64,000 nucleotides of DNA from an uncultured Candidatus Saccharibacteria bacterium (GCA_964388795.1 CAYMBV010000001.1:238701-302700); one strand, 5' to 3'. Shown: positions 52,970 through 57,002, counted from the stretch's first letter. Notes: generated from the letters alone by a model not told the origin. Made by a program: numbers and translations.

Positions 52970-53407
52970 ATGAAAACCATAAAACAAACAATACGAAATG
53001 CAGTGCTGGGTGCGTTTTTGGTGTTTGGCTTATTTTTTGCCACCGCACCACTGACGGCCTCCCCTGTGAGCGCCGCAGGACAGTGTGGCGGTGCGACCAC
53101 GTCTATTATTAGTTGTGGCGAAGATAATAAAGATAAAGACGGTGACGGCAAGGTAGGCTATAACGAAACCGGTGTCTGGGCTATTCTTGTTATTGCTATT
53201 AATATTCTAACCGCAGGGGTTGGCGTTCTCGCCCTTGCCGGCATTGTTTACGGCGCTATTCTTTATATGTCTGCAGGCGGTAACGCTGAACAGGTAAAAA
53301 AGGCCTACGGTATTTTCACTAACGTTGTTATCGGCGTCATCGCCTTTGCTGGTATGTGGGCGTTACTGAACTTCCTCATTCCGGGGGGAGCCTTTAACCT
53401 ACTATGA
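52970..53407 (+). CDS. VirB2/TrbC-like pilin 1
   Basis: Signal peptide, Cys pair, two hydrophobic helices around GAILYMSAGGNAEQVKKA. Confidence 0.85.
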   Translation: MKTIKQTIRNAVLGAFLVFGLFFATAPLTASPVSAAGQCGGATTSIISCGEDNKDKDGDGKVGYNETGVWAILVIAINILTAGVGVLALAGIVYGAILYMSAGGNAEQVKKAYGIFTNVVIGVIAFAGMWALLNFLIPGGAFNLL

Positions 53408-54210
53408 AAAAAATCTTACATATAATGACACATACTATTGCCGCTGGGGCGATGCTGTTGTTTCTGGCATTGCCAGTCGCCTCTTTAGCGGTCGTCGCTT
53501 CTCCAGCCCTAACTTTTGCTGAAGATCCTCCGGCGGCTACAGGTGGCACAACCACCACTACTCCAGGTGCTTCGGGTACTCCGGCTACCTCAACTACCCC
53601 TGCCGACTGTGGCAGTGGTTTCCTTGGTATCCGCCCTTGGTACTACGGCCTAGCTGACCCTGCGGCTGATTGTGCGATTAAAGCACCTTCATCGAGCGAC
53701 TCTAACGCCCTTGGTACATTCATCTGGGCGATTGTTCTTAACTGTATCGACATTGCCCTCACTCTTGCTGCCTATGTTGCCGTCGTCTTTATTGTCTATG
53801 GTGGCTTCCTGTTTATTACTGGAGGTGGCGTGGCGACGCAAATTGAGCGAGCGCGTAAGACTATCTTTAATGCCGTCATTGGGCTAGTCATCGCCATGGG
53901 TGCGATTGGTATCGTTCGATTTGTCTTTAATGCCTTCGGGACGGCTGCATCTGGTGCAACGGCAAATGGTTTCCAGAAGTTTACAGCTGCCGAACTACTT
54001 CACAGTGGCCTTAATACCGTGTACTTCTTGGGAGGTCTTATTACGGTCCTCGTTATCATTATTGCCGGTATTAACTACGCTACTTCTGGTGGCGATTCAG
54101 GAAAAGTCTCAAAAGCAAAAAATACACTCACCTACGCCATTGTTGGTTTGGTGATAATCCTGGCAGCTTTTGCGATAACTAACTTTATAATGAGGAGCTT
54201 TGCACAATAA
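53404..54210 (+). CDS. Tandem two-domain VirB2/TrbC-like pilin
   Basis: Two pilin units: YGGFLFITGGG…ERARKTIFNAVIGL and IAGINYATSGGDSGKVSKAKNTLTYAIVGL. Confidence 0.85.
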   Translation: MKKILHIMTHTIAAGAMLLFLALPVASLAVVASPALTFAEDPPAATGGTTTTTPGASGTPATSTTPADCGSGFLGIRPWYYGLADPAADCAIKAPSSSDSNALGTFIWAIVLNCIDIALTLAAYVAVVFIVYGGFLFITGGGVATQIERARKTIFNAVIGLVIAMGAIGIVRFVFNAFGTAASGATANGFQKFTAAELLHSGLNTVYFLGGLITVLVIIIAGINYATSGGDSGKVSKAKNTLTYAIVGLVIILAAFAITNFIMRSFAQ

Positions 54211-54590
54211 TGAAACGACTAAAACTATTTATCGCCAGCCTAACGATCGCCGTTTTTGGCGCAGTAGCGGTTGTTCCTGCGACAACAACTTATGCACTTG
54301 ACCCACTAGGAGACATTTGTAGTTCTCCTGATAGCGCAAGCAACGAAGTATGTAAAAATAAAAACGATGACGCAATGAAGCTGATCGGGGTCGCAATTAA
54401 TACACTACTATTTATTGTCGGTGCCCTGGCGGTTGTCATGATTATCTATGGCGGTATCCGCTACACCACTTCGGCTGGTAATGCATCATCTGTCACTGCC
54501 GCAAAAAACACTATTCTCTATGCAGTCGTCGGTTTAGTGGTCGCCTTCTTGGCTTACGCGGTCGTCAACTGGGTATTGAAACTGTTTTAA
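54210..54590 (+). CDS. VirB2/TrbC-like pilin 3
   Basis: YGGIRYTTSAGNASSVTAAKNTILYAVVGL; Cys pair after the signal peptide. Confidence 0.9.
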   Translation: MKRLKLFIASLTIAVFGAVAVVPATTTYALDPLGDICSSPDSASNEVCKNKNDDAMKLIGVAINTLLFIVGALAVVMIIYGGIRYTTSAGNASSVTAAKNTILYAVVGLVVAFLAYAVVNWVLKLF

Positions 54591-54678
54591 TACGACTCGG
54601 TTTTGCCCTCAGGGGTTAACAAACCGTTAAAAATCTGCTATAACTAACCTAGATTTCATAAGAAAGGATTCACTAACA

Positions 54679-55083
54679 ATGAAACAACTATTTACAAAAA
54701 AGCTGACTGCATTCGTCGCTGCTTTCATTTTCGCAGCAATGGCGTTGTTTGTTCCAGCACCTACTACTTACGCAGCAGACTGTAGCGCTGGTGTGGGCGG
54801 TGGCGCTAGTGCCGGTCTCGACTGTGCTAAGGGCGAAGACGTGCCTGACCAGCTGTTTGGCGAGGGATCAATCTTTACCACAGTGGTAAACGTGATGCTC
54901 TTTATCATCGGTGCGATTAGCGTTATTATGCTTATCTTCGGTGGTATTCGCTACACTACTTCGGCTGGTAACGCTGCAGCCGTCACCGCAGCTAAGAACA
55001 CTATCATGTACGCTATCATCGGTTTGGTCGTTGCCTTCCTGGCATTCGCAGTGGTGAACTGGGTACTTGGTCAGCTCGTCTAG
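54679..55083 (+). CDS. VirB2/TrbC-like pilin 4 (own promoter and AAAGGA RBS)
   Basis: FGGIRYTTSAGNAAAVTAAKNTIMYAIIGL; TGcTATAAC upstream; followed by a terminator. Confidence 0.9.
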   Translation: MKQLFTKKLTAFVAAFIFAAMALFVPAPTTYAADCSAGVGGGASAGLDCAKGEDVPDQLFGEGSIFTTVVNVMLFIIGAISVIMLIFGGIRYTTSAGNAAAVTAAKNTIMYAIIGLVVAFLAFAVVNWVLGQLV

Positions 55084-55108
55084 TAAAGAGATATCCTTTC
55101 TTGACAAC

Positions 55109-55133
55109 AAACCCCCGCTTTTGGCGGGGGTTT
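55109..55133 (+). terminator. Terminator after pilin 4
   Basis: AAACCCCCGC-loop-GCGGGGGTTT followed by T. Confidence 0.8.
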
Positions 55134-55142
55134 TAGTATCTA

Positions 55143-55166: not shown

Positions 55167-55193
55167 CTTTCGTAAGAGCAAGATCCAAATAGC

Positions 55194-55655
55194 CTATTGA
55201 ATTTGAATCTTTTTAGCAGCTTCTTGTTTGATTTTGTTAAAGCTGATGGTCAGAACGCCGTCTTTAAGGACTGCGTCTACTTCGTCTTCTTTGACACTAA
55301 CAGGTAGTGCAAGTGTTCGACTGAATTCGCCCCAGTAACATTCTTGAATGTGCCAGTTGGTTGCTTCGTCGTCGTCACCGCTACTTAGGGTGCCGCTGAT
55401 AGTTAGGATGCCGTCGCTAATGCTAACGTCGAGATCTTCTTTGTTCACGCCGGCCGTGCGGGCTTTTACAACAAGCTTCTCTTCTGTCTCGTAGACGTCT
55501 ACGGCCAGTTGGCCCAAGAATTCTTCTTGACTGTCATCCCAGTTGTCGTCGCTCGCAGGTGCGGCCGTGTCAGTTGGTGTCAGATCGTCGTCGCTAAGGA
55601 AAGCTGCTGCCAGCTCGTCCTCAATGAGTAAATCTTCGTTTGGTTTACGGGCCAT
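55194..55655 (-). CDS. Small heat-shock protein (Hsp20/alpha-crystallin)
   Basis: Start corrected to ATG 55655 (GGAGG RBS); VDVYETEEKLVV, AGVNKEDLDV, WGEFSRTLALP, LKDGVLTI. Confidence 0.93.
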   Translation of the reverse strand: MARKPNEDLLIEDELAAAFLSDDDLTPTDTAAPASDDNWDDSQEEFLGQLAVDVYETEEKLVVKARTAGVNKEDLDVSISDGILTISGTLSSGDDDEATNWHIQECYWGEFSRTLALPVSVKEDEVDAVLKDGVLTISFNKIKQEAAKKIQIQ

Positions 55656-55734
55656 GATATCCTCCACTTTCTCTAGGCTCATTTGACAAATAGTCCTTCG
55701 TATTATACCGACGATGTGAGGTATAATCAACTAA

Positions 55735-56427
55735 ATGGGTGGTATAAACGTAAAAAATACAATAGTTGAACGGGTACTACAAAACATAGCGCCCCACCAC
55801 TGTTACAGCTGTGGGAAAGTGGGTATCCTACTATGCCCACGTTGTAAAGATGACATCATGCATGAGCCATTTGTCGGCTGTTTCTTGTGCGGAAGGGCTT
55901 CTCGGGGTGGTGTTTGTGAGAACCACGAATCACCTATTGCGCGAACGTTCATCGTTAGTCAGCGGGAAGGTGTTTTACGGGCTATTATTGACGCATTGAA
56001 ATTTCACCATACGAAAGCTGCGGCAAAAGAGTTAGCACTATTGCTCCACGAGCGCCTGCCCGTTCTGCCCAACAAGACAATACTCGTACCAATCCCTACG
56101 GTGAGTTCACACATTCGCCAGCGAGGCTATGATCAGGTTGAGCTTATTGCACAGGAGCTTGCTTTACTACGCCACCTGCCGATACAACGACTACTGGGAC
56201 GAACCGGCCGTGCAACACTGCACACCCTGAACCGATCTGACCGACACCAAGCGGCCCAACAGGCTTTTGAGGCACTTGCGGACGAAGCAATGCCAGAAGA
56301 TACAATTATTCTTCTCCTTGATGACATTGTCACCACGGGTGCAACACTACAAAGTGCTGCTCGAGTTTTACGCCCGCTAGGCGTACCAATATGGATGGCG
56401 GCAATTGCCTACCAGCCTCTCGACTAA
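55735..56427 (+). CDS. comF: ComF family (Zn finger + phosphoribosyltransferase-like)
   Basis: CYSC…CPRC…CFLC; RQRGYDQ; LLLDDIVTTGATL. Confidence 0.92.
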   Translation: MGGINVKNTIVERVLQNIAPHHCYSCGKVGILLCPRCKDDIMHEPFVGCFLCGRASRGGVCENHESPIARTFIVSQREGVLRAIIDALKFHHTKAAAKELALLLHERLPVLPNKTILVPIPTVSSHIRQRGYDQVELIAQELALLRHLPIQRLLGRTGRATLHTLNRSDRHQAAQQAFEALADEAMPEDTIILLLDDIVTTGATLQSAARVLRPLGVPIWMAAIAYQPLD

Positions 56428-56464
56428 TCTGCGTTCATCTGTTAAAATAACCAAAGTCCAATAT

Positions 56465-56552
56465 GGAGAGGTGACCGAGTGGTTGATGGTACCGGTCTTG
56501 AAAACCGGCGTGGGGAGACTCACCGAGGGTTCGAATCCCTCCCTCTCCGCCA
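56465..56552 (+). tRNA. tRNA-Ser (TGA)
   Basis: GGAGAGG…CCGGT-CT-TGA-AA-ACCGG, long variable arm, GGTTCGAATCC, CCA. Confidence 0.97.
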
Positions 56553-56600
56553 ATTAAAAAAGCCCCGTAGGGCTCTTTTTATTTTCAGTTAACACTTTGA

Positions 56601-57002
56601 TTAGACGTCTGTAAACCCAGCCGACCCACCCGGCATTATAGTACCGAGAACAAAATTAATAGCGGCAAAGGCTAAGAAAGCAACAATAAGCCCGACAATC
56701 GCGTAAAGAATGGTGTTCTTTGCAGCGGTAACGGCTGCTGCATTACCGGCTGAAGTGGCGTAACGAAAACCACCGAAGATAACCATAATAACTGCTAAGG
56801 CGCCAACGGCAAACAAAAGAGTATTGGTAATGGTCGTAATAACGCCACCATCACCAAAGAGCGTTGCAGGTACACCGTTACCCCTTGCCGCTTCGGCACC
56901 TGCCTGAACACTTGATTGTGCGCCAACCGCGCTCACCCCAATAGTCAGCGCGACGGCGATTGAGAGTGTGAGGCTGGTGATAATTCCAAAAACTTTCTTC
57001 AT
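56601..57002 (-). CDS. VirB2/TrbC-like pilin 5 (separate, inverted, Cys-free)
   Basis: FGGFRYATSAGNAAAVTAAKNTILYAIVGL. Confidence 0.9.
   Translation of the reverse strand: MKKVFGIITSLTLSIAVALTIGVSAVGAQSSVQAGAEAARGNGVPATLFGDGGVITTITNTLLFAVGALAVIMVIFGGFRYATSAGNAAAVTAAKNTILYAIVGLIVAFLAFAAINFVLGTIMPGGSAGFTDV

Follow-up and report, generated by a model that had tools for sequence, protein, structure and literature searches.

Why does a Saccharibacterium hold five dissimilar VirB2-like pilin genes beside one another at its type IV secretion system (T4SS): are they parts of one machine, or alternatives to one another? The question is raised by an array at positions 52970-57002 of a 64,000-nucleotide stretch from an uncultured Candidatus Saccharibacteria bacterium (GCA_964388795.1 CAYMBV010000001.1:238701-302700); the whole stretch is called the window here, and positions are counted from its first letter. 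The five genes, P1 to P5, encode six pilin domains, P2 carrying two (P2a and P2b). The reading that we favour, and consider rather likely, is that they provide differentiated subunits of the Saccharibacterial T4SS: P4 would form the bulk, P1, P2a, P2b and P3 would be co-expressed minor subunits that are not interchangeable, and P5, with a promoter of its own, would be a duplicate of P4 that the cell can probably do without. Arrays of this type are already known and, by gene order, the locus is the orthologue, in another genus, of the array of Southlakia epibionticum ML1. What is new is the position-specific orthology of the pilins, the recurrent fusion of P2a and P2b, and a conserved internal promoter ahead of P4.

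The initial annotation had seen five VirB2-like pilin genes with six domains, and profile searches agree: all five open reading frames (ORFs) match the Pfam family PF18895 (T4SS_pilin; gathering cut-off 26.6 bits). On the plus strand lie P1 (52970-53407; 145 amino acids, aa; 20.1 bits), the di-pilin P2 (53404-54210; 268 aa; 52.4 bits in two stretches, which correspond to classes P2a and P2b), P3 (54210-54590; 126 aa; 43.4 bits) and the candidate major subunit P4 (54679-55083; 134 aa; 39.9 bits), followed on the minus strand by the inverted, Cys-free P5 (56601-57002; 133 aa; 32.3 bits). P1 stays below the cut-off, yet it is a member of an orthologue clade whose other members exceed it. A six-frame scan of the entire genome assembly (774,589 bp in 2 contigs, 97.75% complete) found no further significant PF18895 domain, the sole extra match having an E-value of 0.34; the set of matches in the array is far from chance. 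The array also lies inside a T4SS gene cluster, as expected of PF18895 members, with genes for a PrgI protein, a VirB4-like ATPase, a VirB6-like protein and a hydrolase.

Read from their sequences, the pilins share a layout in which a signal-peptide-like start with an AxA-type site is followed by a head and then by a core of ~75 residues. P1 consists of a signal peptide (~aa 1-35), a Cys loop (C39-C49, CGGATTSIISC), an acidic Gly/Asp linker and a helical-hairpin core (aa 66-141). In P2a, the signal peptide is followed by a Thr/Pro-rich insert (aa 40-68), a Cys loop (C69-C90) with an FLGIxPWYxGL motif, and a core (aa 105-179) with an additional Cys, C114, in its first helix; the P2b half is Cys-free, with its core at aa 193-268. 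P3 has a signal peptide (~aa 1-29), a Cys loop (C37-C48) and a core (aa 53-126), and P4 a signal peptide (~aa 1-32, ending in TTYA and followed by AD), a Cys loop (C35-C49) and a core (aa 61-133). The Cys pairs attributed to pilins 1-4 and the absence of Cys from pilin 5 are thus found on reading the sequences, and the proposed shared core motif holds in part: GG-x-R-Y-x-TS-x-G...AKNT-x-x-YA-x-x-GL can be read clearly in P2b, P3, P4 and P5, and P1 and P2a carry degenerate forms of it. No more than three alignment columns are identical in all six core domains, the cores of the array paralogues are 22-30% identical to that of P1, and the heads are unrelated between paralogues. P4 has 1725 homologues, the closest from Saccharibacteria metagenome-assembled genomes; some are named ‘pilin’ at NCBI (Ca. 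Microsaccharimonas sp.) and some ‘VirB2 component (pilin)’ at JGI. A tblastn search of 72,556 plasmids with P4 returned no match, so that no plasmid-borne close relative is evident.

The insert in P2a deserves a separate remark. It is a Thr/Pro/Gly-rich low-complexity segment, EDPPAATGGTTTTTPGASGTPATSTTPAD, at 53521-53607 (aa 40-68 of P2), between the signal peptide and the Cys loop, and it is missing from all 15 genus relatives examined. From its composition, it may be O-glycosylated or serve as an extended spacer.

Are the same subunits found at the same positions in other genomes? Among 31 relatives from 13 genera of the order, PF18895 was present in all, with 6-8 domains in 27. For comparison, we assembled 21 arrays from six families (the window and 20 fetched arrays) and annotated their domains with a hidden Markov model built on the six window cores; 16 of the genomes considered (the window and 15 relatives) form the genus set. 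Within the genus, gene order is fixed: P1 (Cys pair), P2a (Cys pair), P2b (Cys-free), P3 (Cys pair) and P4, which has a Cys pair in 11/16 genomes, while an inverted, Cys-free P5 stands 1.5-4.5 kb further on in 14/16. In a maximum-likelihood tree of 126 core domains, those from the same array position cluster together, irrespective of the genome they come from. P1 forms a clade of 21 rows (support 99/91), as does P2a (21 rows, 99/79); P2b appears as 16 genus rows (100/98) and 5 rows of other families (100/93). P4 and P5 together make up a clade of 30 rows (97/92), within which a P5 clade of 13 rows is nested (96/99). Judged by this tree, array positions are orthologous classes, with P1, P2a and P2b traceable across the order and its six families and P3, P4 and P5 within the genus, and P5 is a duplicate of P4. 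In one array, L019 (G011:C29; genes 1962-2372(+) and 3894-4283(-)), the inverted P5 clusters with its own P4 (100/93) and not with the other P5s, a possible case of gene conversion or independent re-duplication.

The heads had been described as hypervariable, which proves true between paralogues only. Within the genus, identity is 56-79% in the cores, 29-52% in the heads and 19-35% in the signal peptides, the P4 core being the most conserved of all classes (79%; 56-68% in the others). Orthologues nevertheless retain recognisable, class-specific head motifs: CGGxxT[SA]IIxC in P1, with both Cys aligned in 14/16 genus genomes; C...FLGIPPWYRGL...C.I.SP in P2a; [NG][IV]PxL[ST]G[ED] in P2b; C..G..GG..AGI.CA.G..VP..LFG in P4; and [VI]x[ED]G[VI]xAA[RH]GxGxP..LFG in P5. 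In P3, the Cys pair is aligned in all 16 genus genomes, with a loop identity of 37%. Because the heads keep these motifs among orthologues, neither ‘hypervariable’ nor a reading as antigenic variation is supported, and the arrays do not fit the pattern by which a variation cassette is recognised, with lineage-specific expansion, variable copy number or recombination among interchangeable copies. On the sequence comparisons, the heads evolve faster than the cores, yet do not amount to hypervariable cassettes. Head plasticity is greatest in P1, which has lineage-specific insertions and extra Cys pairs; showing the most lineage-specific variation, P1 is a candidate for the subunit that contacts the host. 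In two relatives (L020 and L023, from G013 and G016), the P1 head carries an insertion of ~40 residues with an extra Cys pair, and other families of the order have P1 heads enlarged to 100-150 residues, with 4-8 Cys.

The two-domain gene P2 turned out to be one state of a recurrent arrangement. P2a and P2b are encoded by one ORF of 229-268 aa in 7/16 genus genomes (the window and 6 relatives) and by two genes in the remaining 9/16, where they abut or overlap and P2b, 95-118 aa long, shows no recognisable signal peptide. A fused P2a-P2b is also found in another family (G028), and fused and split states track clades of the tree. We considered an assembly artefact or a frameshift as the origin of the two-domain gene and rejected it, because related genomes share the fusion clade by clade and a public protein collection contains ~60 fused clusters. 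The topology of P2 is self-consistent: the N-terminus would lie outside, followed by a hairpin, a linker that is again outside, a second hairpin, and an outside C-terminus. Since the two classes have been fused and split repeatedly, they are probably direct neighbours in the assembly, following the ‘Rosetta stone’ argument from gene fusion.

How would the members of the array be expressed relative to one another? P1, P2 and P3 overlap (gene gaps of -4 and -1 nt) and presumably come from one transcript. A candidate promoter for this operon, TTGCAA-N17-TATCGT (52931-52959, +), was read directly from the sequence and ends ~10 nt before the ATG of P1, which has a very short leader without a Shine-Dalgarno site; the layout TTGCAA-N17-TAnnnT-N10-ATG recurs in several genus relatives. 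This suggests that the P1-P3 transcript is leaderless or nearly so, unlike that of P4 with its strong GAAAGGA. P4 is preceded by a spacer of 88 nt, which holds a predicted internal promoter and ribosome-binding site (54616-54668, +), again read directly and conserved in the genus: a -35 element TTAACA (54616-54621), a 17-nt spacer with TG at -15/-14 (54636-54637), a -10 element TATAAC (54639-54644) and the Shine-Dalgarno sequence GAAAGGA (54662-54668). The promoter motif stands ahead of the P4 orthologue in 13/16 genus genomes and AAAGGA in 15/16, and neither precedes any other array gene in these 16 genomes. Behind P4 lies a rho-independent terminator, AAACCCCCGC-UUUU-GGCGGGGGUUU followed by a T run (55109-55138, +), whose hairpin (55109-55133) has a folding energy of -19.3 kcal/mol and a z-score of -4.13; by eye, most of the 16 genus genomes have a GC-rich hairpin and a T run after P4, with differing stem sequences. 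The P4 promoter and terminator are absent from the output of a consensus promoter/terminator scan, and their basis is direct reading, folding and conservation. On that basis, the promoter, strong ribosome-binding site and terminator that the initial annotation had assigned to pilin 4 are borne out. So is its description of pilin 5 as inverted and separately promoted: P5 has, on the minus strand, a promoter with an extended -10 element, TGCTATAAT (57046-57038), a Shine-Dalgarno sequence AGGTG (57018-57014), both read directly, and its own terminator, AGCCC-TACG-GGGCT with a T run (56574-56556), a hairpin that also lies 3' of the tRNA-Ser on the plus strand. Either TGCTATAAT or TGCTACAAT is found upstream of P5 in 11/14 genus genomes.

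Further upstream of P5, a conserved block, GATTGTAGCATAAAACAG (57080-57125, minus strand), is the reverse complement of the extended -10 box TGCTACAAT, and the TGCTACAAT box within it faces tRNA-Ser(GCU) at 57184. P5 and tRNA-Ser(GCU) therefore appear to be divergently promoted, from a 180-bp region that is conserved in most genomes of the genus.

Arrays of small pilin-like genes have a literature of their own. In Saccharibacteria, McLean et al. 2018 (bioRxiv 10.1101/258137) reported 4-6 small VirB2-related proteins with signal peptides, encoded in a syntenic array. In 383 Patescibacteria assemblies, Quinonero-Coronel et al. 2025 (PMC12102498) found 441 VirB2 arrays, each with 2-11 genes and with a particularly high frequency in Saccharimonadia; the Patescibacterial T4SS is also treated in PMC12857230. 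The present array resembles these published ones (PMC12102498; 10.1101/258137) in that divergent PF18895/PF04956 genes, 2-11 in number, lie near virB4 and the origin, and no relaxase is encoded in the vicinity. A search of the text of PMC12102498 turned up nothing on position-specific orthology, fused di-pilins, Cys loops or an internal P4 promoter; the paper suggests an adaptation to different host strains, which the orthology in the present 21 arrays does not favour. Several divergent tandem copies of virB2 beside a T4SS are likewise known from Anaplasma, Ehrlichia, Rickettsia and Bartonella (cited in PMC12102498); these have been read as antigenic or host-range variants, whereas the classes seen here are stable and orthologous, and the whole operon is required in a cultured relative.

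That relative is Ca. Southlakia epibionticum ML1, in which Wang et al. 2023 (PMC10633639) reported an essential T4SS with a pilin array. According to Table S1 of that work, dnaA, dnaN and recF are followed by minus-strand T4SS genes and then by six plus-strand pilins, SEML1_0014-0019, all of which were called GD/ES/ES (essential) by transposon sequencing (Tn-seq; PMC10633639). Behind them come Hsp20, ComF (K02242, non-essential) and tRNA-Ser (SEML1_0020-0022), one extra gene, and SEML1_0024 (PMC10633639). The last is an inverted ‘pilin’ that tolerated insertions at 22-23 sites (NE/NE/NE; PMC10633639) and is the positional counterpart of P5. The window shares with ML1 this order throughout (dnaA-dnaN-recF, minus-strand T4SS, plus-strand pilin operon, Hsp20, ComF, tRNA-Ser, inverted pilin), the Pfam family, a gene of ~100 aa in third position (class P2b) and a gap of ~85 nt before the last operon pilin. 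The two differ in that ML1 has six separate operon genes where the window has four, with P2a and P2b fused and one P3/P4-type gene fewer, and two VirB6-like genes instead of one; essentiality is known for ML1 alone. The call of all six operon pilins as essential suggests that the pilins are not interchangeable. The synteny extends further: 36412-64000 of the window is an origin-proximal region syntenic with SEML1_0001-0046, also including genes for a HIT protein, RlmH, valS and FemAB, and the published Tn-seq calls are therefore transferable gene by gene as hypotheses.

Do the array proteins deserve the name of VirB2-like pilins? The resemblance to the TrbC/VirB2 pilins (Agrobacterium VirB2, RP4 TrbC, F TraA) lies in a long signal peptide, two hydrophobic helices and a short basic loop between them, and in the position of the genes beside virB3, virB4 and virB6. 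An AlphaFold2 (AF2) model of P4, run with 50 homologues, has a signal-peptide helix (H2-23) and a helical hairpin (H65-94/H99-133) with a predicted local distance difference test (pLDDT) score of ~90. The model of P2 has four long helices (102-139, 144-183, 195-227 and 232-267), which make two hairpins, and a small beta element at the Cys loop (mean pLDDT 77; predicted template modelling score, pTM, 0.65). Together with the sequences, these models give what is typical of TrbC/VirB2: a cleavable signal peptide, then a hydrophobic two-helix hairpin with a short basic loop. The TrbC/VirB2 family PF04956 (cut-off 27.9 bits) matches 23/50 P4 homologues, all sub-threshold, with a best E-value of 1.9e-5, and likewise P2b below the cut-off, which makes a weak sequence link. 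The PF18895 matches, these sub-threshold TrbC/VirB2 matches, the signal peptide with its hairpin and the VirB3, VirB4 and VirB6 neighbours agree with the initial annotation in calling the genes VirB2-like pilins of a T4SS locus.

Differences are as clear. Systems with TrbC/VirB2 pilins in diderm hosts have one major pilin and a VirB5 tip, whereas the host here is a monoderm with five genes and six domains. The array proteins have external heads predicted to be closed by disulfides, and their sequences stop right after helix 2, without a C-terminal propeptide. A TrbC-type processing peptidase, which the initial annotation had advised looking for elsewhere in the genome, was not found: the genome has a single S26 gene, on contig 2, which is presumably LepB, and no second, TraF-like S26 peptidase. 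TrbC-type cyclisation is unlikely because of this absence; a VirB2-type cyclisation might still proceed through another enzyme. From these comparisons, the array proteins are best filed as PF18895 members that would work like VirB2, not as proven members of the TrbC/VirB2 family.

In the mechanism that we propose, each precursor would be exported by Sec and cleaved by the single signal peptidase I; P2b, lacking a signal peptide of its own, would follow either fused behind P2a or as a separate protein of ~100 aa. The mature pilin would sit in the membrane as a two-helix hairpin, with its short basic loop in the cytoplasm and its N-terminal head outside the cell, stiffened by a disulfide that VKOR may form. 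By analogy with other systems, the VirB4 ATPase and the VirB6-like platform would pull the subunits from the membrane and polymerise them; the product, a conduit or pilus, would span the wall or lie outside the cell, directed at the host bacterium. P4 would be the abundant major subunit, and P1, P2a, P2b and P3, encoded in one tightly overlapping transcript, low-copy specialised subunits of the base, an adaptor or the tip. The earlier proposal that the set consists of major and minor pilins, pilin 4 being likely the major one, gains indirect support from the private promoter, Shine-Dalgarno sequence and terminator of P4 and from its core, the most conserved of all. More tentatively, and with less than an even chance in our estimate, the T4SS could build an ordered hetero-polymer of several VirB2-like classes, in which P2a and P2b are obligate neighbours, P4 is the bulk and the Cys-looped heads of P1-P3 form a specialised base or tip. 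If true, this pilus or conduit of conjugative type would differ from the known pili, in which one VirB2-type pilin is polymerised (and VirB5 forms the tip where present), and it would work in a monoderm and be needed for feeding on the host.

A number of results pull against this account of differentiated, pilus-forming subunits. The tree alignment is short and does not resolve how P3, P4 and P5 relate to positions 4-7 in other families. The PF04956 cut-off is never reached in the window genome, the best scores being 21.1 bits for P2b and then 13.7 for P3; a profile search of PDB sequences with the P4 family retrieved no solved conjugative pilin, only spurious membrane proteins at an E-value of ~0.4; and hhalign gave no significant similarity between the P4 family and one Agrobacterium VirB2 sequence (L031:44615-44980; probability 0.4). 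A Foldseek search of the P4 and P2 AF2 models against the PDB likewise gave nothing at E <= 0.001, only generic helical hairpins and bundles, so that no significant match to solved TrbC/VirB2 pilins exists in sequence or in fold. Structure prediction does give the VirB2 helical hairpin by which the initial annotation would have its claim judged, but the predicted fold is too simple to be diagnostic or to prove membership. The labels ‘major’ and ‘minor’ derive only from the conservation of a promoter and a ribosome-binding site. Filaments have so far not been observed for any T4SS of Patescibacteria (PMC12857230), and monoderm T4SSs are normally without pili (PMC12102498, PMC10633639). Finally, the Tn-seq essentiality of the upstream ML1 pilin genes could partly reflect polar effects; with such effects possible, essentiality is firm for the whole operon and SEML1_0019 and less so for each upstream gene.

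What other function could a fixed set of hairpin proteins serve? The fixed classes and the recurrent P2a-P2b fusion suit a complex of defined stoichiometry as well as they suit a filament, and the pilins might accordingly be membrane-resident: their hairpins would stay in the cytoplasmic membrane as part of a translocon or stalk, at fixed positions in a hetero-oligomeric channel and with no extended filament, much as VirB2 can aid substrate transfer independently of pilus formation. The general lack of pili in monoderm systems agrees with such a channel, and no VirB5-like tip protein was recognised among the window neighbours of the pilins. However, a P4 that is, as predicted, privately promoted and strongly translated suggests a subunit needed in large excess, and external heads that disulfides are predicted to stiffen, together with the family relation to TrbC/VirB2, point to a polymer exposed at the surface; we regard a purely membrane-resident role as unlikely. 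Secreted effectors are a further possibility that has been voiced: earlier TM7x papers label the array genes ‘putative effectors’ (bioRxiv 10.1101/2022.03.25.485537). The products are indeed small signal-peptide proteins encoded beside a T4SS, and some of those in TM7x show increased expression during stable symbiosis. However, they belong by profile match to the pilin family PF18895, and each pilin domain has two long hydrophobic helices that occupy more than half of the mature protein, on which ground we rejected the effector reading as highly improbable. Substrates of T4SSs, moreover, are not normally recruited by a Sec signal peptide.

The idea in the initial annotation that the paralogues are alternative pilins or tips, kept for different hosts, antigenic variation or phage evasion, has also been floated in PMC12102498, and the sequences offer it several footholds: paralogues that are barely alike in their cores and unrelated in their heads, heads that outpace the cores within the genus, P1 heads that have lineage-specific insertions with additional pairs of Cys (L020, L023, other families), and a promoter of its own for P5. 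Against it stands the fact that array positions correspond as 1:1 orthologues with a stable copy number, and that head motifs and Cys pairs are kept within each class. P1-P3 are translationally coupled in one operon and are therefore co-expressed, not alternative; and in ML1, all six operon pilins were called essential under a single host condition, with the proviso of possible polar effects. Only one possible case of gene conversion, the P5 of L019 with its own P4, came to light. We give alternative tips a slim chance and retain the differentiated subunit set.

Only a few machines have been shown to be essential to Patescibacteria living as epibionts, and the T4SS with its pilin array is one of these. 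The window adds no new kind of system, but the comparative results sharpen the question of what this T4SS transports or builds. The pilins emerge as a fixed set of differentiated classes instead of a variation cassette, the repeated fusion of one class pair hints at physical contact, and one class, P4, appears from its upstream signals to be wired for high expression. This yields concrete assignments, namely a major subunit, minor subunits and a dispensable duplicate, for genetics and cryo-electron tomography in the tractable strains ML1 and TM7x.

The genes around the array complete the picture of the locus. Directly upstream of the pilins, on the opposite strand, lies a T4SS of monoderm type (40301-52868, -), identified by Pfam matches and by a gene order like that of SEML1_0004-0013; past it follow recF, dnaN and dnaA, which places the locus close to the origin. 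Its genes encode a 209-aa ORF, a lysozyme-type wall hydrolase, an 880-aa protein of unknown function, a VirB4-like ATPase, a 313-aa unknown, a PrgI/VirB3-like protein, a 1021-aa VirB6-like membrane protein and a 316-aa unknown; the Pfam matches are PrgI (47.1 bits), P-loop_TraG/AAA_10 for the VirB4-like ATPase and Phage_lysozyme2 for the hydrolase, which is of the tail-lysozyme type. Between P4 and P5 lie Hsp20 (55194-55730, -), a ComF-type phosphoribosyltransferase (55735-56427, +) and tRNA-Ser(UGA) (56465-56552, +).

The 316-aa protein (51918-52868, -), between the VirB6-like gene and the pilin operon, has a signal anchor and a Pro/Thr/Glu-rich linker and no Pfam match; its positional counterpart in ML1, SEML1_0012, is NTF2-like by fold and non-essential. 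The VirB6-like protein has a Cys-rich ectodomain. Outside the window, the 0.77-Mb genome contains two VKOR-family genes, G000:C1:30329-30724(-) and G000:C2:25039-25440(+), both scoring above the cut-off (136.5 and 100 bits). With two VKOR homologues encoded, extracytoplasmic disulfides are plausible; the pair points to a dedicated extracytoplasmic disulfide system, which would be consistent with the Cys-paired heads of the pilins and the ectodomain of the VirB6-like protein.

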